Shown: one piece after another, positions 15,533 to 61,863 of the stretch
Numbering within the stretch: position 1 is the stretch's first letter
Layout of the letters: each line of letters opens with the position of its first letter
Assembly: GCA_018901755.1 (NCBI GenBank)
Contig: JAHIDZ010000015.1
Location: 65,079-129,078 of the forward strand
Reading direction: 5' to 3'
Origin: Nanobdellota archaeon
GTDB lineage: Archaea; Aenigmatarchaeota; Aenigmatarchaeia; Aenigmatarchaeales; Aenigmatarchaeaceae
Length of the DNA stretch: 64,000 bases
The notes under the pieces: model-generated
What the model saw: the letters and a program-made list of their open reading frames with translations, nothing else
What the model was told of the DNA's origin: nothing
Databases searched by the model: none
Translations under genes and position numbers: made by a program

Positions 15533-16489
15533 TTATTTTATTGGTATCATTTTTGCAATATTATATGCAAGTGGCCACGGAACGGCATTTCCGATTTGTC
15601 TATATTGTGATGAAATGGATCCTTCAAAGATAAAATCATCGGGAAAATTTTGAAGTCTTGCAACTTCTCTTACAGTCATCCTTCTTTTCAGATTTGGATG
15701 CGGTATTATAACAGGCCCTCCTGTTCCGCCACCTCTACCAACTATTGTTGGAGAAGGCTCATTCCATTTTGTTGCACGGTTTCCTATATGTCCGTTTATC
15801 TTAACTTGATGTTCAGTTCCGTGATGGTTTGGTATATCTCCATCAGTTTTTTCAGGAATTCCTTTTAACCCATCTTTTACTGTTTTCCACAGTGGAAGAT
15901 TATCTTTTCCATCTTTGGAATGCGTCGGATTAGGGTGTATTATTTTTGGTTCAATATCATTTCTTGTTCCAAGTATTATGATTCTTCTTCTTGCCTGTGG
16001 AACACCATAATCCGCAGAATTAAGTATTTTAAAATTAACAGTATAGCCAATTGAAATTGCATTTTCAAGTTCCTTTAAAATAATCTTTAATACCTTTCCA
16101 GTTTTTTTAGCCCGATCTTTAGAAGTTTCATAACCTCCGGCTGAACATAATCCGACAACATTTTCAGCAACGAAATATTTCGGTTCCTTATCCCTAATAA
16201 TACGAAGAAGTTCAAGGTATAATTTATTTCTTTTGTCTTCTGTGTGTCTATATGGATTAGCGATTGAAAATCCCTGACATGGAAATCCACCAATAACTAT
16301 ATCGGCATTAGGAATTTCCAATGATGGAATCTTTTCTATATTGGTGCAAATTGGCCTATGTTTGAAGTATTTTTCATATGTTTTACATGAATCTGAATCA
16401 TTATCATTGGACCAGACTATTATGTGTCCAGCTTTAACAAATCCGAGATCCATCCCACCTGCACCACAAAATAATGATATTATTTTCAT
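15533..16489 (-). CDS. dcm: DNA (cytosine-5)-methyltransferase
   Basis: Motif I FCGAGG, motif IV GFPCQGFS, motif VI ENV (FVAENVVGL) and motif X QIGNAVP. Confidence 0.9.
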   Translation of the reverse strand: MKIISLFCGAGGMDLGFVKAGHIIVWSNDNDSDSCKTYEKYFKHRPICTNIEKIPSLEIPNADIVIGGFPCQGFSIANPYRHTEDKRNKLYLELLRIIRDKEPKYFVAENVVGLCSAGGYETSKDRAKKTGKVLKIILKELENAISIGYTVNFKILNSADYGVPQARRRIIILGTRNDIEPKIIHPNPTHSKDGKDNLPLWKTVKDGLKGIPEKTDGDIPNHHGTEHQVKINGHIGNRATKWNEPSPTIVGRGGGTGGPVIIPHPNLKRRMTVREVARLQNFPDDFIFEGSISSQYRQIGNAVPWPLAYNIAKMIPIK

Positions 16490-16557
16490 TTATATACACC
16501 ATGCTTACTTTCGTAAGTTTCTTCAGTATAAAGCTTCCTTTCACTGAACGGAGTTCT

Positions 16558-16722
16558 CTATTTAGTATTCTGAACCTTTAAGATTAAATTCTTACCGTTT
16601 ACTGCCAGAGCAAACTCAGTTTTGTCATCCCAGCCCATTGTCTCAACAACTGCTTTGGGTATTGTGACGGTATAAACTCCCTCTCCCTTCCTGTGAATAA
16701 GCCTCATAATCTTCTTAGCCAT
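16558..16722 (-). CDS. AbrB/MazE/SpoVT-type swapped-hairpin DNA-binding protein (54 aa)
   Basis: My own translation is MAKKIMRLIHRKGEGVYTVTIPKAVVETMGWDDKTEFALAVNGKNLILKVQNTK, which shows the AbrB-fold pattern. It is missing from the track because it is under 60 aa. The segment is GC-richer than its surroundings. Confidence 0.55.
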   Translation of the reverse strand: MAKKIMRLIHRKGEGVYTVTIPKAVVETMGWDDKTEFALAVNGKNLILKVQNTK

Positions 16723-16778
16723 GCTATATAGTTATCTCTATAGGTATTTATATATTACTGAAGCAACAGATATATTTC

Positions 16779-17213
16779 ATGGAGCATCTTGCAATAATGA
16801 AGAAGTCTTGGAAACTTCTGCCGAAGATTCTTTCCGGTGAAAAAAAGATAGAATCACGCTGGTATATGTCAAGATATCCGCCGTGGAACAGCATTAAGAC
16901 AGGCGAGACAGTCTATTTCAAGGATTCTGGCGAACCAGTCACAATAAAGGCAGAAGTCAAAAAAGTAATTCAGATTTCTAATCTTACTCCCGACAAGGTC
17001 AGAGAGATATTCGATAAGTACGGAAAGACTGATGGTATAGGAGTTACTGACATATCGAAATACATTAAAATGTTCAAAGACAAGAATTACTGCATGTTGA
17101 TATTCCTGAAGAACCCGCAGAATATCAAACCATTCAATATTGATAAGACTGGATTTGGATTAATGTCAGCATGGATAACAGTCAGCAGCATTAATCAAAT
17201 AAGAAAAAAATAA
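16779..17213 (+). CDS. ASCH domain protein (PUA-like beta-barrel)
   Basis: SGEKKIESRW matches the ASCH GxKxxExR signature. Size of 144 aa fits. Confidence 0.6.
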   Translation: MEHLAIMKKSWKLLPKILSGEKKIESRWYMSRYPPWNSIKTGETVYFKDSGEPVTIKAEVKKVIQISNLTPDKVREIFDKYGKTDGIGVTDISKYIKMFKDKNYCMLIFLKNPQNIKPFNIDKTGFGLMSAWITVSSINQIRKK

Positions 17214-17218
17214 CATAC

Positions 17219-17587
17219 TTATTTCAGATCATGCTCCCAGATTCTGATGACTTTCCATCCCTTCTTTCTGAGAATACAGTTTACTTTTCTGTCTCTTTTT
17301 ACGTTCCGTGCTATCTTAGGCAGCCAGTATAGTCTATTTGATTTAGGTGCTCTATAGTGCTTTGGGCACTTGTGCCAGAAGCAACCGTCAATAAAGAGGG
17401 CTATATTATATGATTTGCTGGCATAATCCGGTCTGCCGTAAATGCCTTTAGGCTGGTATGAGAAACCAAGCCTTTTCATGAGTTTCTTTATACTGAGTTC
17501 TGGCTTGGTCTTAGATGATTTGATACGGGACATGTTATAGCTACGCTGGGCTCTTGTATGCACATCTGTCATAAAAATATAAGACAC
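17219..17587 (-). CDS. vsr: very-short-patch repair endonuclease (Vsr)
   Basis: YNMSRIKSSKTKPE...FIDGCFWHKCP...RIWEHDL matches Vsr. Vsr is the functional partner of Dcm. Confidence 0.85.
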   Translation of the reverse strand: MSYIFMTDVHTRAQRSYNMSRIKSSKTKPELSIKKLMKRLGFSYQPKGIYGRPDYASKSYNIALFIDGCFWHKCPKHYRAPKSNRLYWLPKIARNVKRDRKVNCILRKKGWKVIRIWEHDLK

Positions 17588-17684
17588 ATTTAAGTAATTA
17601 ATAGGTAACCGAAAAGCTTAAATATATGTAAATCAAACACTGTATTACATAACTTATTCAGTTTGTGAACGAAGGTGAATCAAA

Positions 17685-18509
17685 ATGACAAAGGAAGAAC
17701 ATGAAAAATACCCACTGCCGTATTATGGTCGGATAAATATAGTAAATAGCATAATAGGAGAACTAAAAGGAGCTACAGAAAGGAAAGAAAAAATCATAAT
17801 TAAAAGAAATATAAGACAGAGCACTGTTGGTATAACATTTAGTTTATCATTGGGGAAGTTCTTGCATCTTCTTGATTCTGATAGTAAACGTATCTGGCTA
17901 ACCGATTTTGGATACAGATATTCAATGCTTTCACAACAGCAACAGAAAGAACTGGTAGCAAAAAATCTTCCAGATGCTTATGTAACACTTCTAAAATGGA
18001 TAAAAAATAGCGAACAAAGAATGATGACGATTGATACTTTAAAGGATGAAATACTTAAAAACTTTATAGAATGGAAACCAACGGAAAGAGTTTTTTATGA
18101 ATCATTATTGACGTTTGCTGATGTTGTAAAATACTGTCACCTTGCAGATTTTGTAAAGGGTAGCAGAGGATCAAGTTCAAGGTTTAAAATCACAGAAGAA
18201 GGAATTAACTTTTTTGATAGTGGCAATTTTGCTACGTCATCAGAAAATACCGATAAATCTGAAACTAAAGGAGATAGAGATCAAAGAAACAGGGAATGGT
18301 ATAATCAGAATCCATTTAACTTAAATATGACAGAAGGAACCACTGTCAGATTAATATCTAATCTTGGTGCGATTGAAAAAAAGATAGAAACTGATGGAGA
18401 CTGGGATAAACTTAAAATTATTATTGATCATTGGAAAGAGATATGGAAAGTTTTAGACAAAGAAAGAAAGAATAAGCCTGCGGAAGACGGGAAATCGCAA
18501 AAGGCATAG
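17685..18509 (+). CDS. hypothetical protein
   Basis: ORF-track protein. No recognised motifs. Confidence 0.45.
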   Translation: MTKEEHEKYPLPYYGRINIVNSIIGELKGATERKEKIIIKRNIRQSTVGITFSLSLGKFLHLLDSDSKRIWLTDFGYRYSMLSQQQQKELVAKNLPDAYVTLLKWIKNSEQRMMTIDTLKDEILKNFIEWKPTERVFYESLLTFADVVKYCHLADFVKGSRGSSSRFKITEEGINFFDSGNFATSSENTDKSETKGDRDQRNREWYNQNPFNLNMTEGTTVRLISNLGAIEKKIETDGDWDKLKIIIDHWKEIWKVLDKERKNKPAEDGKSQKA

Positions 18510-18599
18510 GATTCAGAAGAGAGAGCGACGGAACCTTCATAATAATGAAGAAAAACTATGGACTCTCCGCCCATAGAACAGATCATGAGCTGTGAGGGT

Positions 18600-19790
18600 C
18601 CAAGCCCTTTTCGGTCCGGTAATTTCAGCAGGCTTAGAATGATAATAATTAACCGTTATGGTTTTTATATCTATCTTGCTATATAGTTTGCTATATAGTG
18701 TATTTAAATCCTTTTGGGTGCAATTATACAATATGAAAATGGTGAAACAATCATATGCACAAAACTGGTCAGCATACAACAAAGCTCAGATGAATGAGAA
18801 ACAGCTATTCATGGAACTATTATGCGATTTGTGCAACGATGCTGAAGAACCGGAGTATGTATTCGGAAGACTTAAGATACCAGTTGCTGATATTTTATTC
18901 TGCAGTGCTTTTAAGATATATTCCGGCTATTCTGGTAGAAGATTTACAACAGATATGAGAACTGCAAAGGAAGACAACTACATCAGTAAAGTTCCGCATT
19001 ATAATTCGTTGTTTAATTTTTTGAAGAATCTTAATACATCAGCTATTCTTATGAAAATGATACAGAAATCAGGGCTTTCGTTAAAAGACGTTGAAACAAA
19101 ATTTGCTATTGATGCATCTGGATTTTCAACAACGAGATACAGAAGATGGTTTGATTTCAAATACGGTCATGAAAGGGACTTCAGAATATGGGTGAAAGCA
19201 CATGTAGTTTGCGGAGTAGGAACGAACATAGTTACAGCTGTTAGGCTGTCTGAAGCGAGGGCACACGATAATAAATTTTTCAAGGAGCTTATTAATGATA
19301 CTTCATCAAATTTCAATGTCTGCGAGATGTCAGCTGACAAAGCGTATATGTCAAGAAATAATCTTGAATTGGTTGATAGCCTTGGCGGAAAAGCATACAT
19401 ACCATTCAGATCTAATGTAACAGGAAAACAAAGAGGTTCTAAGCTGTGGGGTAAAATGTATCATTATTTCAAATATAACAATGAGGATTTTATGAAACAC
19501 TACCACCTTAGATCAAACGTCGAATCAACCTTTTCAATGATTAAACGAAAATTTGGTGATACTGTTAGAAGCAAAGATAAAACAGCACAATTTAATGAGA
19601 TTCTATGCAAGATTTTATGTCATAATATTTGTGTTGTTATACATGAAATGCACGAAATGGGTTTCTATAAGAAGACGGAATGGGCAAGTTAGTATTATCA
19701 GGTAAAAATTTATTCAAAAAGAAAAAGAGTTTAAGGACGAAATCCGATTTCTCGTTAAGGACAATTGTCCGATTTCGCCCTATCTATTAT
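18600..19790 (+). mobile_element. IS4/IS5-superfamily insertion sequence (boundaries approximate)
   Basis: Single DDE transposase ORF flanked by GC-rich segments carrying GGTCC/GGAC-GAAA motifs in inverted orientation (near 18603-18626 and 19737-19780). The terminal inverted repeats are imperfect and not firmly delimited. Confidence 0.45.
18733..19692 (+). CDS. DDE transposase, IS4/IS5 family
   Basis: NWSAYNKAQ N-terminal motif, DDE residues in DASGF, SADKAY and ESTFSMIKRKFG (E-x6-K/R). The start is taken at MKMVKQ (18733) rather than at the track's 18658. Confidence 0.8.
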   Translation: MKMVKQSYAQNWSAYNKAQMNEKQLFMELLCDLCNDAEEPEYVFGRLKIPVADILFCSAFKIYSGYSGRRFTTDMRTAKEDNYISKVPHYNSLFNFLKNLNTSAILMKMIQKSGLSLKDVETKFAIDASGFSTTRYRRWFDFKYGHERDFRIWVKAHVVCGVGTNIVTAVRLSEARAHDNKFFKELINDTSSNFNVCEMSADKAYMSRNNLELVDSLGGKAYIPFRSNVTGKQRGSKLWGKMYHYFKYNNEDFMKHYHLRSNVESTFSMIKRKFGDTVRSKDKTAQFNEILCKILCHNICVVIHEMHEMGFYKKTEWAS

Positions 19791-22766: not shown

Positions 22767-24161
22767 ATGGGTAAAAACGATGTATTGCGAAGTGTTTTAT
22801 CTAGCATAAGACCAAGTAAGATTGAGAGAGACCACGCTGAAATGTTTGCATTAAAACTTATAATGGTATCTAAACAGATATCAAAAAGTTATTCTATTGA
22901 ACCTATGTTCGTTGGTTCTTATGAAAAAAATACATGGTTAGCTGGAAATGATGAATTAGATTTATTTTTATTGTTTAGTCCTTCAACGCATAGAAAAAAA
23001 TTAGAAGAACAAGGATTGGAAATTGCTAAAAAGATAATAAATCAAATGGGCGGAACATATCAGAAAAAATATTCTGAACATCCTTATCTTTGCGCTACTG
23101 TAAAATTTGAAGGAATTGAATTTGATGTGGATATTGTTCCTTGCTATGACATTAAAGAGCTTAAAAAAATTAAATCTGCTGTTGATCGGACACCACATCA
23201 TGTTAGATTTGTAAAGAAAAATTTATTATTACCAGATGAAGTACGACTTTTGAAACAATTTTGTAAAGCTGCAGGAATTTATGGAGCCGATGTTAAAACA
23301 AATGGATTTTCTGGTTATCTTTGCGAGCTTATGATAATTAATTATGGTAAATTTGAAAACTGCATTAAAGATGCTATAAAATGGCGAGCACCAACTGTAA
23401 TGACTATAACTGAAATGGATAAGAAAAAATTAATTGATGTGTATAAAGGGCCGTTTATTGTAATAGATCCTGTTGATTTGAATAGAAATGTAGCTGCAGC
23501 TGTTTCAATTGAAAACTTTTATAAATTTATTGAAGCTGCTAGAAAATATATGAACAAGCCTTCTGAAAAATTATTCTTCCCAGATAAAGTTAAATCATAT
23601 TCTGTTAATGAGATAGGTAAAGAAATTGCTAATCGTGGAACAAGATGGTATGCAATTAAATTTGATAAACCAGATGTAACAGATGATATTCTTTATCCTC
23701 AGATGAGAAGGTGTGAAAACATTATAGAGAAGATAATGAATGAAGATGGTTTTGAAGTTATGAGAAAAGACTTTTATGTTGGTGAATTGTGTGTTATGCT
23801 TTTTGAAATGGAAAATTGGGAAGTACCGAGAGTATTCAAAAATATCGGTCCGAATATTTATACTAAACATGCTGAAGAATTTTTAAAACACTATAAAGAC
23901 CGTAAGATATTCTTAGAAGGAGAATACTGGGCAGTTGAGCTAGAACGAAAATACACAACGGCATTACACTTGTTGAAAGATCTTGTTTCAAACACTGATG
24001 CTAAATTAAAGGAAAAAGGAATTCCTAGCAAGATCGTATCTAATTTCAAGAATGCGTCTGTTGTATCTGGTTCTGATATGATTAAATTAATTGAAAAATT
24101 ACCTGAAGATTTTAGAGTCTTTATGAGAAACTGGTTTGAAAAGGATATTGATATTGTTTAA
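22767..24161 (+). CDS. cca: CCA-adding enzyme (archaeal class I tRNA nucleotidyltransferase)
   Basis: N-terminal Pol-beta NTase core (FVGSYEKNTWLAGNDELDLFLLF) followed by the archaeal CCA body and tail. Length of 464 aa fits. Confidence 0.85.
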   Translation: MGKNDVLRSVLSSIRPSKIERDHAEMFALKLIMVSKQISKSYSIEPMFVGSYEKNTWLAGNDELDLFLLFSPSTHRKKLEEQGLEIAKKIINQMGGTYQKKYSEHPYLCATVKFEGIEFDVDIVPCYDIKELKKIKSAVDRTPHHVRFVKKNLLLPDEVRLLKQFCKAAGIYGADVKTNGFSGYLCELMIINYGKFENCIKDAIKWRAPTVMTITEMDKKKLIDVYKGPFIVIDPVDLNRNVAAAVSIENFYKFIEAARKYMNKPSEKLFFPDKVKSYSVNEIGKEIANRGTRWYAIKFDKPDVTDDILYPQMRRCENIIEKIMNEDGFEVMRKDFYVGELCVMLFEMENWEVPRVFKNIGPNIYTKHAEEFLKHYKDRKIFLEGEYWAVELERKYTTALHLLKDLVSNTDAKLKEKGIPSKIVSNFKNASVVSGSDMIKLIEKLPEDFRVFMRNWFEKDIDIV

Positions 24162-24283: not shown

Positions 24284-24514
24284 CTAATAAATATATTGTC
24301 CGGTTTTTTCAAATTCTCCAAGTGCCTTTTTACCATCTTCTGTTATAGAGTAAGAATCGCCTTCATTTTTTACAAATTTGTGTTCGTATAGTCTTGATAC
24401 TGTAGTTAGAGGATGTCCTTTACTACCAGATAATTTATGTAGTATTAGTAAATCTGTATTTCCAATTGATAGTGTTTGTAACACCTTAACTTCAGTCGAT
24501 TTCATTTCAACCAT
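24284..24514 (-). CDS. small winged-helix-like protein
   Basis: ORF only. Helix-turn-helix-like pattern. Confidence 0.35.
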   Translation of the reverse strand: MVEMKSTEVKVLQTLSIGNTDLLILHKLSGSKGHPLTTVSRLYEHKFVKNEGDSYSITEDGKKALGEFEKTGQYIY

Positions 24515-24590
24515 AATATATATTACTCTAAAGTAGTATATAAATCTATCGGTTAGACGAAATTATTAATAAAGAGCGCCTATAACCTTT

Positions 24591-25478
24591 ATGCCAGAAC
24601 CAATAGAAATAACATTTCTAGGAACAGGAGCAGCCGTTCCAACAATACGAAGAAATCATTCAGCAATAGTATTACATTATACCGGAGAGTATATTTTATT
24701 TGACTGCGGAGAAGGGACACAATTACAGCTACAGAAAGCTAAGATATCACCATTAAAGATATCAAAAATATTCATAACACATTGGCATGCTGACCATTTC
24801 GCTGGACTATTGCCACTAATAGAAACATTACATCTTGAAAAACGGACGGAACCGCTGGAAATATATGGTCCTGAAGCATCACGGTTTGTAGACGCTATAA
24901 TTGAATTAAGTTATTGGGGAACAGGATTTGACATAATAGCTAAAGATGTAGAATCTAATCAGAAAATATTTGAAAATGATTTATTTGAAATTTCAACAAT
25001 TAAGACAAGGCATTCTGTTCCATCAGTTGGATATTGTTTCAAAGAAAAGGATCATGTTCATATTGATATCGGTAAAGCAAATAAATTTGGATTAAGAGGA
25101 ATAGATATTAGAAAAATCAAGGAAGATGGAAAAATAAAGATAGGAGATAAAATCATTAAATTGGAAGATGTTTCTAAAATTACACCTGGTAGAAAAATAA
25201 TTTACACCGGAGATACAAGAATATGTCCTGAAATTTTTAAGGCAGCTAAAAATATTGATTTGCTTATACATGAAGGCACGTTTATTGAAAGATTTGAGGA
25301 AAGAGAACATTCTTCTGCTAAAGAAGTTGCGAGACTTGCAAAAAAGAATAATGTAAAAAAGTTAATTTTAACACATTTCAGTAAAAGATATAAAACTTCT
25401 AAGGAGATAGAGAAAGTCGTTAAACTGATTTTTAGTAAAGCCATTGTTGCACAAGATTTGATGAAGGTAAAAATATGA
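24591..25478 (+). CDS. rnz: ribonuclease Z (tRNA 3' endonuclease)
   Basis: ITFLGTGAAVPT, metallo-beta-lactamase HxHxDH (THWHADHFAGL). Confidence 0.9.
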   Translation: MPEPIEITFLGTGAAVPTIRRNHSAIVLHYTGEYILFDCGEGTQLQLQKAKISPLKISKIFITHWHADHFAGLLPLIETLHLEKRTEPLEIYGPEASRFVDAIIELSYWGTGFDIIAKDVESNQKIFENDLFEISTIKTRHSVPSVGYCFKEKDHVHIDIGKANKFGLRGIDIRKIKEDGKIKIGDKIIKLEDVSKITPGRKIIYTGDTRICPEIFKAAKNIDLLIHEGTFIERFEEREHSSAKEVARLAKKNNVKKLILTHFSKRYKTSKEIEKVVKLIFSKAIVAQDLMKVKI

Positions 25479-26275
25479 TTAGATTAGGAACAGCAGGAAT
25501 ACCAATTTCTTTTGATGGAAGTTCTATTGAAGCTATTCCGTTTATAAAAAAATTAGGTCTTCAGGCACTTGAAGTTGAATTTGTTCGTGGAGTTCATATG
25601 AGCATACCTATAGCAAAGGAACTTGGTAAAATTGCAAAAGAAAATGATATTGCGCTTTCTATCCATGCACCATACTATATTAATTTAGCAAGTCATGAAA
25701 AAGTTAAAATAATTGATTCTAAAAAAAGAATACTTGATTCATTGGAGCGCGGAGATGCGATGGGAGCAAGAATTGTTGTCATGCATCCTGGTTACTATGG
25801 CAAACATTCCAAAGAAGAATGTTATAAAATAATTAAAGAACAGTGCCAGGAAATAATAGATAAATTTAATGGAAAATGTTTATTGGGTTTAGAGACAACT
25901 GCAAAACAAGCTGCTTTCGGAACAGTTGAAGAAATTCTACAAATTTGTAAAGATGTTAAAGGATGTGTACCAGTTATAGATTTTGCACACTTGTTTGCAA
26001 GAGATTCAAAGATTGATTATTCAGAGGTTTTGGATAAATTCAAAGGTTACAAACATTTACATTGTCATTTTTCAAATATGAAAAAAAACAAGGATGGTAG
26101 TTATACTGATAATCATGTTCCAATCGATAACGCGCCAGCATTTGAACCATTAGCAAAAGAAATCTTAAAAAGAAAATTAGATATAACAATTATTTCAGAA
26201 AGTCCATTAATAGAGAAAGACGCATTGAAGATGAAGAAAATCTTTGAGAAATTGGGTTATAAATTTATTTTTTAA
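25475..26275 (+). CDS. nfo: AP endonuclease family 2 / endonuclease IV-like TIM-barrel protein
   Basis: SIHAPYYINLAS matches the Nfo H-A-x-Y-L-I-N-L-A signature. 4-nt overlap with rnz. Confidence 0.65.
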   Translation: MIRLGTAGIPISFDGSSIEAIPFIKKLGLQALEVEFVRGVHMSIPIAKELGKIAKENDIALSIHAPYYINLASHEKVKIIDSKKRILDSLERGDAMGARIVVMHPGYYGKHSKEECYKIIKEQCQEIIDKFNGKCLLGLETTAKQAAFGTVEEILQICKDVKGCVPVIDFAHLFARDSKIDYSEVLDKFKGYKHLHCHFSNMKKNKDGSYTDNHVPIDNAPAFEPLAKEILKRKLDITIISESPLIEKDALKMKKIFEKLGYKFIF

Positions 26276-26648
26276 TTAAAATACCGTTTAACATTCCATG
26301 CTGTCCTGGTTTAGAAGTTATTTTAACAAGTCCAAGTTCAGTATCAACCACAGTTCCTTTTGTCATAATATTCATTCGTACATAGTTAGGATTTGCTGGG
26401 TTTTCTTTAACAGTGATTGCTTTGACTATTTTTGTTTTTCCCGTGTTTGTGTCGGTAACATTTATTTGATCAGAATCCATTAATCTCATTTTCTTACTCC
26501 CACCCATTGTTCTGATGGCTTTCTTTCTAACTTTAGCAATTTTAACAGGGATAAAATCATTACCAAAATCTCTTTTTTTCTTCTTTCTATAATTATTTAA
26601 AACTGCACTTGTTGGTCTCCTTGCGCTTCTTCTCTGTGCTATAGCCAT
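26265..26648 (-). CDS. rps8e: 30S ribosomal protein S8e
   Basis: Basic N-terminus (QRRSARRPTS) and overall eS8 pattern (...GGSKK.RL...D..NV.....GKTK...I). Confidence 0.85.
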   Translation of the reverse strand: MAIAQRRSARRPTSAVLNNYRKKKKRDFGNDFIPVKIAKVRKKAIRTMGGSKKMRLMDSDQINVTDTNTGKTKIVKAITVKENPANPNYVRMNIMTKGTVVDTELGLVKITSKPGQHGMLNGILIKK

Positions 26649-26742
26649 ACCCTATATACATAATAGCAATATTTATAAAGTTTATTAATTACCAAAGCAC
26701 GAGTAAAAACAAAGATTTAAATAGGTTATAGCTATAACTAAA

Positions 26743-26973
26743 TTGATGAATATGAGTTCAAGACCGTTAGATGTATTGGATAAAGCGAAAGGAAAAAGAG
26801 TAATAGTCAAACTGAAAAATGGAGTAGAAGTTACTGGTGTTTTACAAGCATTTGATTTACACTTAAATATCTGGCTTGAAGAATCAGTAGAAAGAAAAGA
26901 TAATTCAGAAATAAAGCTTGGTTCGTCTTTAGTAAGAGGCGACACAATAATCTTAATTTCTCCAGCAGAGTGA
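26743..26973 (+). CDS. Sm-like archaeal protein (SmAP/LSm)
   Basis: Sm1/Sm2 motifs (RPLDVLDKAKGKRVIVKLKNGVEVTGVLQAFDLHLNIWLEE...RGDTIILI). It is adjacent to L37e, as in the conserved archaeal pair. Confidence 0.85.
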   Translation: MMNMSSRPLDVLDKAKGKRVIVKLKNGVEVTGVLQAFDLHLNIWLEESVERKDNSEIKLGSSLVRGDTIILISPAE

Positions 26974-26977
26974 TTTT

Positions 26978-27163
26978 ATGAGTAAAGGAACACCGTCCTT
27001 TGGTAAGCATAATAAGACTAGTCACATTCCTTGTAGAAGATGCGGAATACACGCATACCACGTTAAACATAAGAGATGTGCACACTGTGGGTACCCTGAT
27101 TCTAAAATATATAAATTTAGATGGAATTGGAAAAATATTCTAACCAGAAACAGAAAGAAGTAA
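26978..27163 (+). CDS. rpl37e: 50S ribosomal protein L37e
   Basis: GTPSFGKHNKTSHIPCRRCG...CAHCGYP zinc ribbon typical of L37e. Confidence 0.9.
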   Translation: MSKGTPSFGKHNKTSHIPCRRCGIHAYHVKHKRCAHCGYPDSKIYKFRWNWKNILTRNRKK

Positions 27164-27251
27164 GTTATATAAATATTGTAATAACACTAACTTATTTGCG
27201 AGTAAACTCTACAAATCGAGTCATAATATAATATATGTATTTGAGACATAT

Positions 27252-27992
27252 ATGATACTTTCAATGGAAAGATTTAATGAAAAAATTATTATTGAAAATA
27301 GTATGCAGAGAAAGCTATTTCTAGAAATTAAGAAAATGGAAGGTTTGAGTCAAAGGAAGCTTGCAAAACGGTTAAAAATAAGTCGAAACAGCATTAAAAA
27401 CTGGGCAAGTGAGGATAGAAAATTACCGAAATTTATTTTCGAGGAAATATTAGAAAAGTTTCCATGGGCATCGGAATATAGAAATTATGTACATGGCACC
27501 CTTCCTAGAAACTGGGCTCAGATTAAGGGTGGTAAGATTCGAAGTAAGATGAAGAATAATTTAACAAATGATGATAGAGTAAAGGGATTTAGGCTGGGCA
27601 GATTGGGGATTAAAAGAAAAACAGTTGGGCCAAATGGCGAACTGATGTTTAATGATGGCGAAAAAAGAATTGCTGAGGAGTTGATACGAAATAAAATTAA
27701 CTATGTGTATGAGCCGGTAATTTTACTTGGAGAAAATTATGCTATCCCAGATTTCATTGTGAATAATACTGTTATCGAAAGATGTGGTTATCGCGATTGG
27801 AAGCCGTATTGGTCGAATATTAAGAGAAAGATTAAAAGATTAAAGAAATATGAAAATTATAAAATCATTATTTTAGTCCCATCAAAAAATTTTGATATGG
27901 TAGTTAAAATTTTAAAAAATGTCAGAGGCATCACTATATTGAAGGAAGAAAATTTGGAAGCACTTTTAGATATTTTGAAAATATACCATTGA
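27252..27992 (+). CDS. HTH fused to a PD-(D/E)xK (DUF559/Vsr-like) endonuclease domain; homing-endonuclease-like
   Basis: Its N-terminal HTH (LFLEIKKMEGLSQRKLAKRLKISRNSIKNWASEDRKLPKFIFEEILEKF) aligns with the N-termini of the LAGLIDADG genes in this window. The C-terminus IAEELIRNKINYVYEPVIL...IPDFIV...IERCG resembles the DUF559 nuclease core. Confidence 0.55.
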   Translation: MILSMERFNEKIIIENSMQRKLFLEIKKMEGLSQRKLAKRLKISRNSIKNWASEDRKLPKFIFEEILEKFPWASEYRNYVHGTLPRNWAQIKGGKIRSKMKNNLTNDDRVKGFRLGRLGIKRKTVGPNGELMFNDGEKRIAEELIRNKINYVYEPVILLGENYAIPDFIVNNTVIERCGYRDWKPYWSNIKRKIKRLKKYENYKIIILVPSKNFDMVVKILKNVRGITILKEENLEALLDILKIYH

Positions 27993-28063
27993 TTATTTGT
28001 ATATAGAAAGCAATTTAAATGATAGGATGAAATCTTATTAAAGGGTCTAACCCCCAGGCAACT

Positions 28064-28166
28064 GGGTCCATAAGTTAAATTTTAATTTAACTGGAATGCT
28101 CAGTTTGGCTAGAGCACCTGCCTCTTAAGCAGGGGGTCGCGGGTTCAAATCCCGTTGGACCCACCA
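28064..28166 (+). tRNA. tRNA-Lys (anticodon CUU) with a 25-nt intron between positions 9 and 10; CCA encoded
   Basis: Acceptor GGGUCCA/UGGACCC, D-stem GCUC/GAGC, anticodon arm CCUGC-CUCUUAA-GCAGG and T-arm GCGGG-UUCAAAU-CCCGU. The intron at 28073..28097 (AGUUAAAUUUUAAUUUAACUGGAAU) forms an 8-bp hairpin. Confidence 0.78.
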
Positions 28167-28219
28167 ATTATTTTTGAATTATTAATATGTTTAAATATTT
28201 GACTAGTAGATAATTATTT

Positions 28220-31087
28220 ATGAAAGGCATAACACAAATTTTGATATTTGCAATATTTTTGTCTATTTTGAGTACTTCGTTTTATGCATATAATATTACA
28301 GATTCTGGTTACTATTGCCACAATTGTACAGATTGTATGGACGCTATTAACAATGTTACAATGAATGTGACATATCTTAATATGAGCATATATGTAGAAT
28401 CATCATGTGTAGATAATCCTGAAAATTTTACAAATGAAATATTCGATTGCCAAAATTATAACATAACTGGAAGCGGAACTGCTGCAATTTATTTGAATAA
28501 TAGAAATAATGTTACAGTTAGAAATTGTGATATTGCTGGTTATAATGGATATGGTATATTGTTAACATCTTCTACAGATAATACAATTCTTAATAATACA
28601 ATATGGACGCCGTCTACTATATCTATACTGCTACAAACATCAAGTGATAATAATGTAATTGCCAGCAATACATTGAGAATGCCAGACTGGTATTATAATT
28701 TATATGGTGGTTATTCGAGTCGAAATATTAAAATTACTGATTCTTCAAATAATAATATAACTGGAAATAATATTAGTCATGCATATAGAGGTCAGGGTCC
28801 ATATATTGAAATTTCTAATGCAACATATACCAACATTATCAATAATAATGTTTATGGTAGTTATTGCTCTTATCTTCCGCCAGCTCAGTTATGTGATGGT
28901 TCTGGAATATATGCAGCAGATTTTACTGATAGTGTAATAGCAAATAATACAATATCTGGTAATTTAACCGGTATTTACATTTCATCTGCTTCAGATAATA
29001 CAATTATTAATAATAGTATTAGTGGACATACCAGTGCTGCTACTTATAGTGGAATAAATTTGTATGCATCCGAAGCAAATAATGTAACTAATAATAGTAT
29101 AATAGATGCAACTTCTACATCATATGGAATTTCATTATATGCAGCTTCCAACATTAATAATATAACAGCAAATATCATATCTTCGGCTGCAAACATATAT
29201 CTTCAATTGTCTGATGAAAATATTATCAATGATAATACAATTTACAATGGTGTAAGAGGATTTTTAACCTATATGGCAAATTATAATAATTTTACAAACA
29301 ATATAGTAACAGGCTCAACACTTACTAACATATATCTTTTGGCATCATCATATAATAATTTTACATATAATACTATGACAAATACGAAATATGGTATTCA
29401 GATAGAAGATGATCCTGGTGATTGGTCAATATCACCTATACCAGAGTATTTTGATAATTATATAGATACTACAAATACGATAGGTGGAAAAACAGTTTAT
29501 TATTATCGTAATCAATATAATACAACATTGAGTCCGTCTAGTCCAGGATTTTTAGGATGTTTTAATTGCACAAATGTTACAATACGAGATACATCTATTT
29601 CAGAAAATGGACAGGGAATATTGCTTGCAAGTACAAATGATTCTCTTATTACAAATTGTACAATTGGCTCAAATTATATGGGATTTTATTTTGATACGGC
29701 AACTTATAACAATAATGTTACCAATTCTCTAATTTACGGAAACGATTATTTAACAGTTGTTGATTTGGGGGTAAATAATATTTTCGGAAATGATAATATT
29801 TATTTATATGATATGATTGTTCCAGTATCAAATACATGGTATACAAGTTTTGATGAAATGTCATTTAAAATATCAAATTTGACCTATGCTAATATGATAT
29901 GTAGTCAATATATTAATAATACTCTTACAAAAACAAATACATCTGTTAAAGATAATCAGAAAACAAACTTTACATATACTGCATCGGAAGGACCACATTC
30001 TTATTATTTTTATTGTAATGATACTAACGGAACCGATATGTTTGACTTTTCAACAGCAGCAATAACATATGGATTGAAGTATTCTAATAATATAGCAGGA
30101 TGCACGCTAGGAACACATTGTAAATCTGGTTTTTGTGTACATAACATATGTCGAGCAGCAGCAACATATTGTGGAGATGGATATTGTGATGCTGGGGAAG
30201 GGGCATGTACAGTTGATTGTGGTTCTGGCGGTAGCACCGGGGGAAGCTTACCAATATCATCTGTAATAACACCAATAGTATCAACACTCCCACCGTCAAT
30301 AACATTCCCAAATACTGTATTCAATAATGCGAACGGATTGTTAATAATACCTGAAGATGGAGCAGTTATGTCATTGTCAATCGATGGAAAGTATATAATA
30401 GATCCAAGTGGGTATCCGATATCTTTTGTATTATTTGGTAGTGCAGGAACAGCAAATGTAATTAAAACTGTTGAAATAACACCAGACCAATTCAAAGAAA
30501 CAAAATGTTACCAAGAAACTTTAGCATCATATGTTTTAGAAATAGAAGGTGAAAATAAATATTTATGTTTAAACATAGAAGATTATAGTAAAGAAAATGT
30601 AATAGATATCAAAACATACAAATTTGTAGATGATGATTGGCAAGAGATATCATATCAAGATTATAATGGAAAATTATGCTCACCAATAACTTCAACACCA
30701 TACATGATTGCGGGGTTCAAATCTAGCTCAACGCAGCAAGAAGCTCTTACTAAAATATTAATGGCTGAAAGTACATTAGAAGTTGCATCTGAGAGTGGGC
30801 AAGATACCGAATATGCAGAACAATTAATTACTGAAGCTAATGTCGCATATTGGTCTTGTCAATATGCTAGTGCATCAGATTTAGCTATACGTGCCGTACA
30901 AAGTGTAAAGACGATAGAATTACCACTTTATATGATTTTATCAGGAGTTGCTATTATTTTAGCTGGAATTTTATACTTATTTAGAAACAAATTAAATTTC
31001 ATTAAATTTCCAAAGAAGGAAATAACTTCAATAAATGAAACAACTGTATCAGAGATATCAAAAAAGAAATTAAAGAAACAAAAATAA
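28220..31087 (+). CDS. cell-surface protein: signal peptide, parallel beta-helix repeats, Cys-rich stalk and C-terminal TM anchor; likely heavily N-glycosylated (S-layer or adhesin candidate)
   Basis: N-terminal hydrophobic signal (ILIFAIFLSILSTSF). Dozens of NxS/T sequons within N-N-T-I/N-N-S-I beta-helix repeats. Cys-rich segment CTLGTHCKSGFCVHNICRAAATYCGDGYCDAGEGACTVDC. C-terminal TM helix LPLYMILSGVAIILAGILYLF followed by a basic tail. Confidence 0.75.
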   Translation: MKGITQILIFAIFLSILSTSFYAYNITDSGYYCHNCTDCMDAINNVTMNVTYLNMSIYVESSCVDNPENFTNEIFDCQNYNITGSGTAAIYLNNRNNVTVRNCDIAGYNGYGILLTSSTDNTILNNTIWTPSTISILLQTSSDNNVIASNTLRMPDWYYNLYGGYSSRNIKITDSSNNNITGNNISHAYRGQGPYIEISNATYTNIINNNVYGSYCSYLPPAQLCDGSGIYAADFTDSVIANNTISGNLTGIYISSASDNTIINNSISGHTSAATYSGINLYASEANNVTNNSIIDATSTSYGISLYAASNINNITANIISSAANIYLQLSDENIINDNTIYNGVRGFLTYMANYNNFTNNIVTGSTLTNIYLLASSYNNFTYNTMTNTKYGIQIEDDPGDWSISPIPEYFDNYIDTTNTIGGKTVYYYRNQYNTTLSPSSPGFLGCFNCTNVTIRDTSISENGQGILLASTNDSLITNCTIGSNYMGFYFDTATYNNNVTNSLIYGNDYLTVVDLGVNNIFGNDNIYLYDMIVPVSNTWYTSFDEMSFKISNLTYANMICSQYINNTLTKTNTSVKDNQKTNFTYTASEGPHSYYFYCNDTNGTDMFDFSTAAITYGLKYSNNIAGCTLGTHCKSGFCVHNICRAAATYCGDGYCDAGEGACTVDCGSGGSTGGSLPISSVITPIVSTLPPSITFPNTVFNNANGLLIIPEDGAVMSLSIDGKYIIDPSGYPISFVLFGSAGTANVIKTVEITPDQFKETKCYQETLASYVLEIEGENKYLCLNIEDYSKENVIDIKTYKFVDDDWQEISYQDYNGKLCSPITSTPYMIAGFKSSSTQQEALTKILMAESTLEVASESGQDTEYAEQLITEANVAYWSCQYASASDLAIRAVQSVKTIELPLYMILSGVAIILAGILYLFRNKLNFIKFPKKEITSINETTVSEISKKKLKKQK

Positions 31088-31471: not shown

Positions 31472-31741
31472 TTGGGTGGTTTATTGGCTAAAGAAGAAAA
31501 TGAAATTGAAATTGATGTTTTATCGCATAGATTTGTACCGGAACACATAATTCTAGGAGAAAAAGAGATAAAAGAATTAATGGACAAATATAATATAATA
31601 CCAGAACAATTGCCAAAACTTTTGAAAAATGATCCAGCAGTTAAAGCTATCAATGCAAAAGAAGGAGATGTAGTAAAATTGATAAGAAAATCAATAACAG
31701 CAGGCGTAACAACATATTATAGATTTGTTGTTAAGAAGTGA
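31472..31741 (+). CDS. rpoH: DNA-directed RNA polymerase subunit H (Rpb5 homolog); apparent TTG start
   Basis: VPEHIILGEKEIKELMDKYNI...LP.L...DP....I.AKEGDVVKLIR.S...G....YR.VV matches RpoH. It lies immediately upstream of rpoB. Confidence 0.85.
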   Translation: MGGLLAKEENEIEIDVLSHRFVPEHIILGEKEIKELMDKYNIIPEQLPKLLKNDPAVKAINAKEGDVVKLIRKSITAGVTTYYRFVVKK

Positions 31742-34700
31742 TTTCATGGAACCTAAACCACTATTAAACGGATTTGAAAGAGATGTTGGATTTATAAAAT
31801 TCCAGATTGAAAGTTATAATAATTTTATTAATAACAGATTACAGAAAATAATAAATGAGATTAAAGAAATAAAACCTGAAGTTCCTGAGATAGGCGAATT
31901 GACAATAAAACTCGGTAAAGTAACTGTTGGTCAGCCATCTGTAAAAGAAGCTGAAGGTTCTATTAGAAAAATTATTCCAATTGAAGCAAGATTGAGAGAT
32001 CTTTCTTATACAGCTCCGGTTTTTGTTGAATTAACACCTATTGTGAATAAAACAGAACAGGAACCAATAAACGTACAATTTGGAGAAATACCAGTAATGG
32101 TAAAATCTAGTTTATGTCCATTGAGTAAAATGTCAAATGAAGATTTGATAAAAAATGGAGAAGATATTTATGATACAGGTGGGTATTTCATAGTTAATGG
32201 AACTGAACGTGCTTTAGTTCTTATAGAAGAAATAGCACAGAACAAAATGATTGTTCAGAAACAGAATATTGGTAATTATACTGAAATGCTTAGAGTTAAT
32301 TCAGAACATAACGGATATGTTCAGCGTCATCTTATTGAAAGAAAAAATGATGGAACAATTTATATTTCATTTGCAAACATCAGAAGACTTCCTATTGTTG
32401 TATTAATAAAAATGCTTGGGATTTTGAAAGATAAAAATATCGTTGATGAAATAGGCGATGAAGCAATAGTAAATGAATTTTATAATAATCTTTATGAAAC
32501 AGAAGTTGAAACAACAGGCCAGGCAATTGAATACATTAGTTCTCATTTGAAAATCGCACAAAAAGAATATCAAAAACAAAGAGTTGAACAATTAATAGAT
32601 AAATATCTTTTACCACATTTAGGACAAGATTCTAGTGATAGAACAAGCAAAGCGCAATATCTATTAAAGTCAGTTCGGAAAATAGTTCAGCTTGCTTTAG
32701 AAATAATACCTGAAGATGATTTAGATCATTATGGAAATAAAAGAATCAAAATGTCCGGCGATATGTTAGAATTATTATTTAGATCTATTCTTGTTGGTAA
32801 ATGGGGGCTAATTGCAAGAGTAAAATATAATTATCAGAAAATGGCTAAACGTGGTAAATTACCACCAATTCAAACAATAGTTGAATCTAATGTTGTAACG
32901 AATCAATTAATTTCTGCAATGGCTACTGGTTCATGGGTAGGTGGAAGAACTGGAGTTTCACAGAGATTAGAAAGAAAAAATTATGTTCATGCATTATCTC
33001 ATTTAAGACTTATTTTATCACCGTTAACAACAACACAAGAACATTTCGAGGCAAGAGAACTTCATGCTACACATTGGGGAAGATTTTGTCCAGCCGAAAC
33101 ACCAGAAGGACCTACAATTGGATTGAGAAAACACTTAGCATTATTTGCTGAAATTACAAGAGGTGTACCTGAAGTAGATAGAAAAAAAATAGTTTCATTT
33201 TTAAAGTTTGATAAGGGCGCAAAAATAGACGTATTTCTTGACGGCGTTGTTATTGGAGCAACATTAGATGGCGGAAAGTTTATAGAATCGTTAAGAGAAA
33301 AAAGAAGAACAAATAAAATATCAGGAGAAACAAATTTCTCATTTTATCCAGAACTTAATGAGCTTAGAATAAGCACGGACTCAGGAAGAGTTAGAAGACC
33401 ATTGGCAGTTGTCGATAATGGCAAATCAAGATTAACAGATGATCATTTAAGAAAATTAAATGAAGGTGAACTTAAATGGAATGATCTTTTCGAATCAGGT
33501 ATGCTTGAATATATTGATGCTGAAGAAGAAGATGCTTTATTTATTGCATTGAATGAAAAGGAAATTAATACTCATACACATATGGAATTATCACCAATTG
33601 CATTGCTTGGACTATCTGCAAGTTTAGTAACATTCCCAGAACACAACAGAGGAGATAGAGTAAACTTGGGGGCTAAAATGTTAGGACAGGCAGTTGGAGT
33701 ATATGCAAATAATTTTGCACTGAGAACAGATACAAAATCAAATATACTTCTTTATCCTCAAACACCACTGATAGATACAGATACAACGGCTATGTGTGGT
33801 TTAACTCATCATCCGGCAGGACAGAATGTTGTCATCGCTGTGTTAAGTTATCATGGATATAATATGCAAGATTCTGTAGTATTCAATAAAGATTCAATTG
33901 ATCGTGGTATGTTTAGATCATTATTTTATAGAATTTATAGCGCCGATCAGAAAAGATATTGGGGTGGCCAAGAGGATTTAATTGGAATACCTGATAAAGA
34001 TGTACGTGGATTTAAAGCAGAAGAAGATTATGCCCAACTTGCAGAAGACGGAATAATATCTTTAGAAACACGAGTTAAAGGAGAAGATGTTCTTGTAGGA
34101 AGAATGTCACCATTAAGATTCTTAAGTGCAAATGAGCTTATGTCAGGAATTTCTAATATGAGAGAAAATTCTACATGTGTTAGACATAGCGAAGGCGGTG
34201 TTGTTGATAGAATTTTCCTAACGCAGACAACAAATGGTGTAAAACTTGTTAAAACAGCAGTTAGAGATATGAGAATACCTGAACTTGGTGATAAATTCGC
34301 ATCAAGACACGGGCAGAAATCTGTAGTAGGATTAATACTTCCTGGCGAAGATATGCCATTTACAGCAGCTGGTATAACACCAGATATAATTTTAAATCCA
34401 CACTCAATTCCTTCGAGACAAACAATTGGACAGTTATTAGAAATAATATCTGGAAAAGTTTCTGCTATGAACGCTAAGAAAGTTAATGGCTCTGCATTTA
34501 CGGGCGATGAGGAAATGAATATACGTGATTTGCTAAGAACACTTGGATTGAGAAGTGATGGGAAGGAAGTTATGTATAACGGAATAAATGGAGAAAAGTA
34601 CGAGGTTGAAATTTATACTGGTATGGTTTATTATCAGAAACTTGATCATATGGTTGCAAATAAAATACAATCAAGATCAAGAGGTCCTGTAACATTATTA

Positions 34701-35001
34701 ACAAGACAACCAACAGAAGGTAAAACTAAAGAAGGTGGTTTAAGATTAGGAGAAATGGAAAAGGATTGCCTAATAGCTCATGGGGCTGTTTTAGCACTTA
34801 AGGAAAGATTCGATTCAGATAAAGTTACCGTACCGATATGTAGACAATGTGGTTTGATTGCAGTTTGGGATAAGGTGAAAGATAAATATGTTTGTCCTAG
34901 CTGTAAAGAAGATAACATTGTTGATACAGACATGTCCTATGCATTCAAATTGCTATTAGATGAACTAAAGGCAATGATGACATATCCAAAATTAAATGTG
35001 A

Positions 35002-35009
<8 letters not shown>
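31725..35009 (+). CDS. rpoB: DNA-directed RNA polymerase subunit B, unsplit (the start may be the ATG at 31746)
   Basis: 1094-aa Rpb2 homolog with a C-terminal zinc ribbon CRQCG...CPSCK. A single ORF covers both the B'' and B' regions. Confidence 0.95.
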
Positions 35010-38642
<3,633 letters not shown>

Positions 38643-42806: not shown

Positions 42807-43616
42807 TCACCATCTAAATTTTGAAGGTTGCAGTCTGCATATCATTCTTTGTGTATTTACCTTTTTATAATAACATTCATATTCTATATCTTTAAGCGTA
42901 TTATTGTAGAAATCTGTCAGTGATTTATTATGCAAAAGTATCGAAAACTCATTTCTTTTATGATATATGCATAATTTATGTGAATAATTATTTTTTAATA
43001 GTTGAACAATTTGTTTGGCGAGTATTTCGTTTTTTAAAGAAGATGCCACTAAAATATTATCTTTCAATTTAATTTTACCATTGCTTCCTTCATCAATAAA
43101 ACATGCTCTTAAGATGGAGTTTTTCCAGCTTGGATTTTTTAGAGCAAGTGCAATTATTTTTTTAGGAAGTTTCCTTCTTTCAAACCCATAATGATTTATT
43201 AGTAAATTTGATGCTACAGAAGATAGCCCGTATGATTTTACACCGTTTTGATTGCTATGGTATAGAGCGGTGCCCATTCCAATTTTTTTAACTAAATCAG
43301 AAAACATTTCTTGTTCCATGTTGTTGCGCGTTTCATAATAAAAGGAGTTTCCCCTTCCTACGGTGCCATCAAATAAAGTATGTGCTATTATTTCGGCGTG
43401 TTCTGGCATTTCTTTATACGGAAATTTATTAAGTATAAAATTTATTTTCGGGTAGTTAAATATGATTATGTGCGATTCTATAGATTTTTTTGATATTTTA
43501 AGAACGTCAATCCATTTAAGGAATATGTTAATCGTTGGGTGTCTATGACCATTTTCATAGTGAGATATGCGTCCTTTTTTAATTTGTATTAATTTTGCTA
43601 TGGCTTTCTGTGTCAA
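42807..43616 (-). CDS. HTH (XRE-like) fused to a LAGLIDADG homing endonuclease-like domain
   Basis: N-terminal QKAIAKLIQIKKGRISHYENG HTH. LAGLIDADG motifs IIAHTLFDGTVG and LRACFIDEGSNG. Confidence 0.75.
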   Translation of the reverse strand: MTQKAIAKLIQIKKGRISHYENGHRHPTINIFLKWIDVLKISKKSIESHIIIFNYPKINFILNKFPYKEMPEHAEIIAHTLFDGTVGRGNSFYYETRNNMEQEMFSDLVKKIGMGTALYHSNQNGVKSYGLSSVASNLLINHYGFERRKLPKKIIALALKNPSWKNSILRACFIDEGSNGKIKLKDNILVASSLKNEILAKQIVQLLKNNYSHKLCIYHKRNEFSILLHNKSLTDFYNNTLKDIEYECYYKKVNTQRMICRLQPSKFRW

Positions 43617-43740: not shown

Positions 43741-43860
43741 TGGTGCGGGAGGCAGGATTTGAACCTGCGAATGAACTAATCAACTGGGTCCTAAGCTTCG
43801 CTCAAGAATAAACGTATTTAATCTTGTCCAGCGCCTTAGACCTAGCTTGGCAACTCCCGC
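43741..43860 (-). tRNA. tRNA-Leu (anticodon UAG) with a 31-nt intron at the anticodon-stem position 30/31 (or 31/32); CCA encoded
   Basis: Minus-strand read GCGGGAG-UU-GCC...GGC-G-CUGG[ACAAGAUUAAAUACGUUUAUUCUUGAGCGAA]G-CUUAGGA-CCCAG-UUGAUUAGUUCAUUC(variable arm)-GCAGG-UUCAAAU-CCUGC-CUCCCGC-A-CCA. Removing the intron gives a perfect CUGGG/CCCAG anticodon stem with G37. The D-arm and long variable arm match archaeal tRNA-Leu. Confidence 0.7.
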
Positions 43861-45224: not shown

Positions 45225-45303
45225 GGGGATTTGAACCCCTGTTGTAAACTTTTTGCGAAATTCTTGGCAAGCTTACGTACTGGCCAGACTATACGACACT
45301 CGC
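45213..45303 (-). tRNA. tRNA with a 14-nt intron at the canonical 37/38 position, most likely tRNA-Gly (anticodon GCC); CCA encoded
   Basis: Minus-strand read GCGAGUG-UC-GUAU-AGUCUGGCCA-GUAC-G-UAAGC-UUGCCA[AGAAUUUCGCAAAA]A-GUUUA-CAAC-AGGGG-UUCAAAU-CCCCU-CACUCGC-A-CCA. UUGC of the loop can pair with GCAA in the intron, giving a BHB-like helix flanked by 3-nt bulges. Confidence 0.62.
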
Positions 45304-61786: not shown

Positions 61787-61863
61787 GCCTCGGTAGTTCA
61801 GTCGGTACGAATGCTCGCTTGGTAAGTGAGAGGTCGTGGGTTCAATTCCCACCCGAGGCTCCA
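61787..61863 (+). tRNA. tRNA-Thr (anticodon GGU), no intron, CCA encoded
   Basis: GCCUCGG-UA-GUUC-AGUCGGUAC-GAAU-G-CUCGC-UUGGUAA-GUGAG-AGGUC-GUGGG-UUCAAUU-CCCAC-CCGAGGC-U-CCA. Confidence 0.9.

Follow-up and report, generated by a model that had tools for sequence, protein, structure and literature searches.

A tRNA-Lys(CUU) gene of a DPANN archaeon with a putative bulge-helix-bulge intron at position 9/10 and a leader element complementary to the 3' acceptor strand

The window, i.e. the whole stretch of 64,000 nucleotides that was analysed, has a GC content of about 31% and carries archaeal core genes (CCA-adding enzyme, RNase Z, S8e, LSm, L37e, RpoH/B/A'/A'', TFB, TBP, MCM and RFC), together with four tRNA genes, three of which contain introns, all with strict 3-4-3 bulge-helix-bulge (BHB) motifs. 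One of these interrupted genes, a tRNA-Lys(CUU) gene located on the forward strand at positions 28064-28166, has the direct read GGGTCCATA-(AGTTAAATTTTAATTTAACTGGAAT)-GCTCAGTTTGGCTAGAGC-A-CCTGC-CTCTTAA-GCAGG-GGGTC-GCGGG-TTCAAAT-CCCGT-TGGACCC-A-CCA, where the first block is exon 1, the parentheses enclose the intron and the remainder, GCTCAG...TGGACCC-A-CCA, is exon 2. Another public assembly (L124, GCA_018899515.1, contig JAHIIB010000044.1) contains the identical 25 nt of the intron, with 99.955% identity to the window over 4,432 bp (window 24477-28908). The L37e protein is also encoded on this contig, and the NCBI label of its proteins is 'Nanoarchaeota archaeon', i.e. DPANN. The features of the locus and the other tRNA genes of the window are presented in Table 1.

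Table 1. Positions of the tRNA-Lys(CUU) gene, its upstream elements and the other tRNA genes in the window. Sub-parts are listed below the feature to which they belong.
Feature	Positions	Strand	Basis
HTH and PD-(D/E)xK-like nuclease gene, conserved upstream neighbour, 246 aa	27252-27992	+	Pfam, AlphaFold/Foldseek, synteny
BRE/TATA-like element AAAGCAATTTAAAT	28007-28020	+	Direct read; motif conserved upstream in L125 and L127
Leader element GGGTCTA, mimic of the 5' acceptor strand; can pair 7/7 with the 3' acceptor strand 28156-28162 (TGGACCC)	28043-28049	+	Leader search and folding
Last four leader bases AACT; may lengthen helix h to 7 bp via AGTT 28102-28105	28060-28063	+	Constrained fold
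Exon 1, tRNA positions 1-9 (GGGTCCA-TA)	28064-28072	+	Sequence and BHB register
Exon 1: top of outer helix h	28064-28066	+
Exon 1: top of central helix H	28067-28070	+
Exon 1: 5' bulge, bases 1-2	28071-28072	+
BHB intron, 25 nt	28073-28097	+	Inverted repeat and BHB register; cleavage geometry after PMC12397907
Intron: 5' bulge, base 3 (A)	28073	+
Intron: hairpin h', 7 bp, loop TTTA 28081-28084	28074-28080/28085-28091	+
Intron: bottom of helix H (TGGA)	28092-28095	+
Intron: 3' bulge, bases 1-2 (AT)	28096-28097	+
Exon 2, tRNA positions 10-76, with D arm, anticodon arm (CTT 28124-28126) and T arm	28098-28166	+	Sequence, Rfam, BHB register, ARAGORN
Exon 2: 3' bulge, base 3 (G)	28098	+
Exon 2: bottom of helix h (CTC)	28099-28101	+
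Exon 2: 3' acceptor strand	28156-28162	+
Exon 2: discriminator A	28163	+
Exon 2: encoded CCA	28164-28166	+
T-run directly after CCA	28171-28175	+	Direct read
tRNA-Leu(UAG), 31-nt strict BHB intron 43797-43827 at non-canonical 30/31, H CGCU/AGCG	43744-43860	-	Called correctly once spliced
tRNA-Gly(GCC), 14-nt minimal strict BHB intron 45251-45264 at 37/38, H UUGC/GCAA	45213-45303	-	Called correctly once spliced
tRNA-Thr(GGU), intronless	61787-61863

The Rfam tRNA model (RF00005) matched only positions 28098-28155 of the unspliced DNA, which correspond to model positions 10-63 (43.2 bits, gathering score 29), so that the match starts exactly 3' of the proposed insert, and no tRNA-Lys was called by ARAGORN at 28064-28166. 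After in-silico deletion of 28073-28097, ARAGORN called a tRNA-Lys(ctt) of 78 nt, whose acceptor stem has 7 bp and whose CCA is encoded. A previous sequence-only reading of this locus, which had placed a 25-nt endonuclease-type intron between positions 9 and 10 of a tRNA-Lys(CUU) and had obtained a regular tRNA-Lys after its removal, is thus borne out, including its coordinates and exon sequences. The T-run downstream of the gene is, as judged from its bases, a likely transcription stop. The 3' CCA is encoded in the four tRNA genes of the window (28164-28166, 43744-43746, 45213-45215 and 61861-61863) despite the presence of a CCA-adding enzyme gene (22767-24161), and it is encoded in 0/45 of the most similar tRNA-Lys genes from other archaea among the matches listed.

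The insert borders form a strict 3-4-3 motif (hBHBh'), in which two 3-nt bulges on opposite strands are separated by a 4-bp helix and enclosed by flanking helices. The central helix H is made by U4-C5-C6-A7 and the UGGA of the intron (4/4 pairs), the bulges are U8-A9|A on the 5' side and A-U|G10 on the 3' side, the inner helix h' has 7 bp and a UUUA loop, and the outer helix h consists of 3 bp between G1-G3 and C11-U12-C13 (GGG/CUC). The splicing endonuclease EndA cuts between the second and third base of each 3-nt bulge flanking the 4-bp helix, as visible in the ARMAN-2 enzyme-RNA structure (PMC12397907), and the cuts predicted here, 28072/73 and 28097/98, fall exactly at 9/10. When random 25-mers drawn from the window, or shuffled versions of the intron, were set in the same register, about 1-2 in 10,000 of these controls gave a 4-bp H together with an h' of at least 4 bp, which makes a chance origin of the motif unlikely.

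The perfect 8-bp inverted repeat described in the sequence-only reading is present (28073-80/28085-92), but its outermost pair A28073-U28092 must open in the BHB, leaving 7 bp. The relaxed BHB with CCA/UGG pairing that had been proposed has to be replaced by the strict 3-4-3 motif with a 4-bp UCCA/UGGA helix, A28073 being bulged and U28092 being paired with A28070. None of the arrangements that define a relaxed BHB (HBh', hBH or BHL, with a missing or altered bulge or an H other than 4 bp) was found in the window motif. The strict 3-4-3 motif is the one required by the alpha4 and alpha'2 forms of EndA (PMC3239211), and the tRNA-Lys intron by itself would therefore make no demand for an EndA of relaxed specificity, contrary to what had been previously supposed, although the same work assumes that alpha4 acts at the canonical position. 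Some relatives do have relaxed motifs, with an H of 3 bp in L122 and without helix h in the 8/9 subgroup described below. No match to EndA (tRNA_int_endo) or RtcB was obtained among 55 of the window ORFs of at least 110 aa. A self-splicing group I or II intron was also considered and does not fit; the insert has 25 nt and no Rfam intron family was matched. The ribozyme core of group I and II introns comprises hundreds of bases and is usually placed in the anticodon loop of tRNA genes.

The tRNA-Leu(UAG) gene was missed by ARAGORN with default settings and miscalled as Pro(agg) with the intron option, and its Rfam match of 37.7 bits contained a 40-nt gap. The default ARAGORN label Trp(cca) for 45213-45303 was discarded, the gene being a tRNA-Gly(GCC) once introns are allowed. 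Three free-standing LAGLIDADG_3 ORFs are present in the window at 3821-4450 (+), 44481-45224 (+) and 56378-57373 (-), one of them abutting the 3' end of the tRNA-Gly gene and another located between two RFC subunit genes; those at 3821-4450 and 44481-45224 are distantly related (25% identity over 128 aa).

An exon-2 pattern scan with one genome per prokaryotic species, which represents a sample and not a census, has retrieved at least 119 tRNA-Lys(CUU) loci, both archaeal and bacterial. Among the matches listed, position 9 was directly joined to position 10 without any insert in 118 of 119, revealing that the exon junction, which in the spliced window gene equals that of these 118 homologues, is the ancestral sequence, and a single locus (1/119 among the same matches), labelled Micrarchaeota (L093), showed a 21-nt insert at the same site. 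A metagenome scan requiring the intron, in which exon 1 had to read GGGNCCRTA and relatives of the GGGCTCA type were consequently missed, gave L122 and L123 as true hits; L120 and L121 were rejected as false positives. In L122, a tRNA-Lys(UUU) gene closely precedes rpoH-rpoB, an arrangement shared with the window; besides its 28-nt insert at 9/10 it has other introns. Nine more distinct loci (L125, L127, L129, L131, L132, L133, L134, L135 and L136) were reached through homologues of the upstream HTH gene (41-70% protein identity, 29-58% locus GC), and an intron-bearing tRNA-Lys gene was found right after the HTH gene in 9/9. Altogether, 11 further distinct tRNA-Lys genes with an intron at 9/10 or 8/9 were obtained from related metagenomic archaea. 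The window gene, L125, L127, L134, L135, L136 and L122 have the register 9/10 (type A), and L129, L131, L132, L133 and L093 have a strict register 8/9 with an intron AACAAC...GUUGU and the same mature sequence (type B).

The inserts of the relatives range from 18 to 28 nt and their sequence varies freely, and helix H co-varies with the acceptor strand (UCCA/UGGA, CUCA/UGAG, CUCG/CGAG, CCUG/CAGG, GCCC/GGGC or GGGU, GCUC/GAGC, GUCC/GGAU). In an alignment of 10 genes (A1), which was built by hand around the structure and so leans towards it, 97.5% of the cells of H were paired, with changes on both sides in 4/4 pairs, and h' was 100% paired; the observed covariation score was reached by no shuffle, and slid partners were less than 50% paired. 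Many relatives have one or two extra introns (30/31, 37/38, about 39/40) and the window tRNA-Lys has only one. The tRNA-Lys(UUU) genes of L122 (2794-2945), L134 and L135, the last two placed downstream of the HTH gene, seem to be triply interrupted, at 9/10, in the anticodon stem or loop, and by a long insert before the T arm; manual fitting gave no clean BHB for the third insert of L122. Non-canonical introns had been presented as restricted to a few archaeal lineages, but they are not especially rare here, since many disrupted tRNA genes, along with modified EndA enzymes, have been reported in DPANN lineages (PMC5829648).

With regard to the gene upstream of the tRNA-Lys, Pfam identified only an N-terminal HTH_3/HTH_19 domain in its product, and the C-terminal domain has the invariant residues E137, Y151-x-Y153-E154-P, P166-D-F168 and E176-R-C-G179. 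Its AlphaFold model (pLDDT 87.8) gave weak PD-(D/E)xK matches with Foldseek, the best being PspGI (E 1e-3), together with Ecl18kI, Mus81, Can2, AF1548 and NucS, and one homologue carries the JGI name RecB-like nuclease. No EndA, LAGLIDADG, HNH or GIY-YIG structure was among the Foldseek matches, which leaves a divergent EndA unsupported. The order S8e-LSm-L37e-HTH-tRNA-Lys ... rpoH-rpoB is fixed in at least nine related loci, and a mobile insertion was rejected on account of this conserved synteny. In the more distant L107, L063 and L019, L37e is followed directly by an intronless tRNA-Lys gene, and L093 and L122 have the intron and the leader element and lack the HTH-nuclease gene. These observations characterize the gene as a lineage-specific resident neighbour, and nothing links it mechanistically to the intron. 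Its former description as homing-endonuclease-like is not supported in view of the lack of LAGLIDADG, HNH or GIY-YIG matches, the fixed synteny and the two loci with intron but without the gene. A 25-nt BHB intron encodes nothing, and no homing mechanism is known for it. In some relatives the called ORF of the HTH gene overlaps the tRNA leader. A second HTH_3 protein of 269 aa is encoded at 42807-43616 (-), directly downstream of the intron-bearing tRNA-Leu gene; both HTH genes were compared as possible paralogues and no meaningful similarity was found.

Between the HTH gene and the tRNA-Lys gene, the centre of the TATA-like box (about 28017) is located 26 nt before the leader element and about 47 nt before tRNA +1. 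The other three tRNA genes of the window have a TATA-like box only about 29-33 nt before +1, which implies leaders of a few nucleotides. Considering the known archaeal TATA-to-start spacing, the box upstream of the tRNA-Lys gene would act as its promoter, and its distance of 26 nt to the word GGGTCTA suggests that the transcript probably starts at this word with a leader of about 21 nt.

The leader word was taken as the best-pairing 7-mer within 45 nt, a selection whose bias was controlled only by the same search on intronless genes. In the intron-bearing genes the word could pair 7/7 in 10 of 12 and 6/7 in one (L133), and was lacking in one (L136), and a 7/7 word was found in only 2/118 intronless tRNA-Lys genes among the matches listed; as the intron-bearing loci are related, the Fisher test for this association (3e-11) overstates independence. 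None of the other three tRNA genes of the window has a 7/7 word (best, 3-4 of 7). The lack of the element in L136 indicates that it is not obligatory. The words lie 7-21 nt upstream of +1 and remain complementary while their sequence varies (GGGTCTA, GGGTCCA, GGGTTCA, GGGCTTG, GGGCCTG, GGGCCCA, GGGCTCA). The copy was also considered as the true exon 1, which was ruled out by the lack of U8-N9 after it. In the intronless L103, the sequence GGCTCCGTAGCTTCTCG is found about 39 nt upstream of the tRNA-Lys gene and looks like a partial copy of the 5' end of this tRNA.

When precursors were folded with the leader, the minimum-energy structure contained both pairings, leader to 3' strand and exon 1 to intron, in 10/10 cases, and forcing the acceptor stem cost 1.7-7.8 kcal/mol. 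For the window precursor, the predicted probabilities were 0.93-0.99 for the leader helix and 0.54-0.90 for H when the leader was included, and about 1 for the acceptor stem and 0 for H when it was omitted; the probability of the outer helix h in the minimum-energy fold was as low as 0.08, and the energy of the fully strict BHB conformer exceeded the minimum by 2.3 kcal/mol. An unbiased MAFFT/RNAalifold analysis of whole precursors recovered only the cloverleaf; the leader helix was missed, since differences in length had led to misaligned leaders, and the support for this helix comes consequently from the hand-made alignment A1 and the intronless-gene control.

Taken together, these data argue that the locus is very probably a functional DPANN tRNA-Lys(CUU) gene, whose 25-nt intron at 9/10 would be removed by protein-dependent splicing. 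It could be thought that the gene is dead, with an insertion that is never removed and another copy supplying tRNA-Lys(CUU), considering that ARAGORN makes no call on the unspliced gene and that 64 kb of the genome are in view, so that a second copy is possible. However, neither exon shows any damage, the gene has a promoter-like box and a T-run, the insert makes a strict BHB in exact register, an insert at the same site has been kept in 11 other diverged genes with compensatory changes, and the conserved position L37e ... tRNA-Lys ... rpoH is retained as in intronless relatives, all of which makes a dead gene very improbable. Retention of the 25 nt as an extra hairpin between acceptor stem and D stem, giving an unusual mature tRNA, would agree with the minimum-energy fold calculated without the leader, which consists of an intact acceptor stem and a free 8-bp insert hairpin, but it is still harder to believe: what is conserved and covaries among the relatives is the helix between exon 1 and the intron's 3' end, which a retained arm does not need, and the insert varies freely in length (18-28 nt) and sequence. 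Positions 8-10 make core tertiary contacts in all tRNAs known to us, which also counts against a retained hairpin. A real intron that is cut one base earlier, at 8/9, is the arrangement to which the 4-bp helix and 3-nt bulges fit in L129, L131, L132, L133 and L093, where A9 could derive from either side of the intron; in the window gene, however, an 8/9 cut yields U9 instead of A9 and leaves no 4-bp helix in register, the strict motif fitting only 9/10, and there is little chance that it applies here.

Concerning the leader element, sequence statistics and predicted folding point to a decoy that would free exon 1 for the BHB, and it is tentatively proposed, at close to even confidence, that the mimic is a built-in RNA switch kept together with the acceptor-proximal tRNA-Lys intron in this DPANN clade. 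An element without any role in processing, i.e. a duplication leftover, a preference for GGG at the start site or a side effect of the overlap with the 3' end of the upstream ORF, is a quite substantial possibility, although less than an even one. It finds support in L136, which would splice without the element, in the called upstream ORF that crosses the element in several relatives, and in the predicted nature of the folding data. Against it, the 7/7 pairing persists although the word differs between genes in sequence and in distance to +1 (7-21 nt), the element differs from exon 1 in several genes and still pairs through G-U wobble, it is present in L093 and L122, both without the upstream ORF, and it is nearly absent from intronless genes and absent from the other three tRNAs of the window.

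In the precursor, bases 4-7 of exon 1 (UCCA) would pair with the UGGA of the intron to give the 4-bp central helix, with the 7-bp intron hairpin on one side and the pairing of G1-G3 with C11-U12-C13, which the leader could extend to 7 bp, on the other. This BHB would have to compete with a very stable acceptor stem for the 5' acceptor strand, and according to the proposed switch GGGUCUA at the start of the transcript would pair with the 3' acceptor strand, leaving exon 1 free for the BHB. EndA would then cut between bases 2 and 3 of each bulge, a ligase of the RtcB type would join A9 to G10, and the cloverleaf would refold once the intron is removed. The leader of about 21 nt would be taken off afterwards by RNase P, the CCA being already encoded. 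If the switch is true, splicing precedes 5' maturation by RNase P, and the element provides a previously undescribed route to spliceable acceptor-proximal introns.

Non-canonical archaeal BHB introns have been described at 3/4, 20/21, 29/30, 30/31, 45/46 and 59/60 in Thermoproteales, Nanoarchaeum, ARMAN-2 and Thaumarchaeota (PMC4090602, PMC3239211, PMC8450103). The tRNA-Lys intron resembles them in being short and defined only by the border BHB, in that its removal restores the cloverleaf, and in that other tRNAs of the genome also have introns. However, its position 9/10 (8/9 in relatives) is outside the positions listed in those works, its motif is strict 3-4-3, many non-canonical introns having relaxed ones, and is built at the expense of the 5' acceptor strand, and it is found at one site of one isoacceptor family across a DPANN clade, other non-canonical introns being scattered. 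Neither 'positions 9 and 10' nor 'positions 8 and 9' was found together with tRNA-intron terms among the papers listed, in a text search in which strings such as '9/10' are unsearchable.

The BHB of split and permuted tRNAs is assembled through pairing between leader and trailer (Nanoarchaeum equitans, Caldivirga, Thermofilum, Cyanidioschyzon; PMC4090602, PMC3218864), and in the cited literature leader-trailer pairing is described only for these genes. The tRNA-Lys gene shares with them a sequence outside the mature tRNA that base-pairs to enable the splice motif, but it is contiguous and in normal order, and its leader is proposed as a decoy on the 3' acceptor strand, unlike the leaders and trailers that lie inside the BHB. 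The EndA variants described in DPANN archaea, alpha4 with an L3 loop, (alpha-beta)2 in N. equitans and epsilon2 in Micrarchaeota (PMC5829648, PMC12397907), include the enzyme that would be expected to act on the tRNA-Lys intron, and disrupted tRNA genes have been reported in Nanoarchaeota (GTDB/NCBI sense). The three strict introns of the window would not by themselves need a broad-specificity DPANN EndA; relaxed forms, however, are found in relatives.

The kind of intron is thus already known, and the novelty is modest, consisting of the position, the conservation across the DPANN clade and the co-varying leader element. In addition to what is known for such introns, Lys tRNAs are repeatedly interrupted at 8/9-9/10 in loci whose GC content spans 29-58%, and the BHB competes with the acceptor stem, a competition that the co-varying leader is predicted to settle. 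If confirmed, the leader element would be an example of a precursor architecture that lets introns invade the most constrained part of a tRNA, and would bear on the order of the tRNA processing steps. In practical terms, as ARAGORN and the Rfam tRNA model miss or shorten the gene, genomes of this clade will seem to be without tRNA-Lys.

Other observations in the window and its relatives were made outside the tRNA genes. In the rpoB region of L125, L127, L131 and L133 there is one called product of about 1,910 aa in which Rpb2 and Rpb1 domains are combined; either a fusion of RpoB and RpoA' or a read-through call could account for it. The corresponding genes of the window (31725-37494), rpoB and rpoA', are separate ORFs with an 8-nt overlap. 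The region 15533-19692 of the window contains genes for a C5 cytosine DNA methylase (15533-16489), a Vsr-type mismatch endonuclease (17219-17587) and a DDE transposase (18658-19692), and looks like a small restriction-modification or mobile island.
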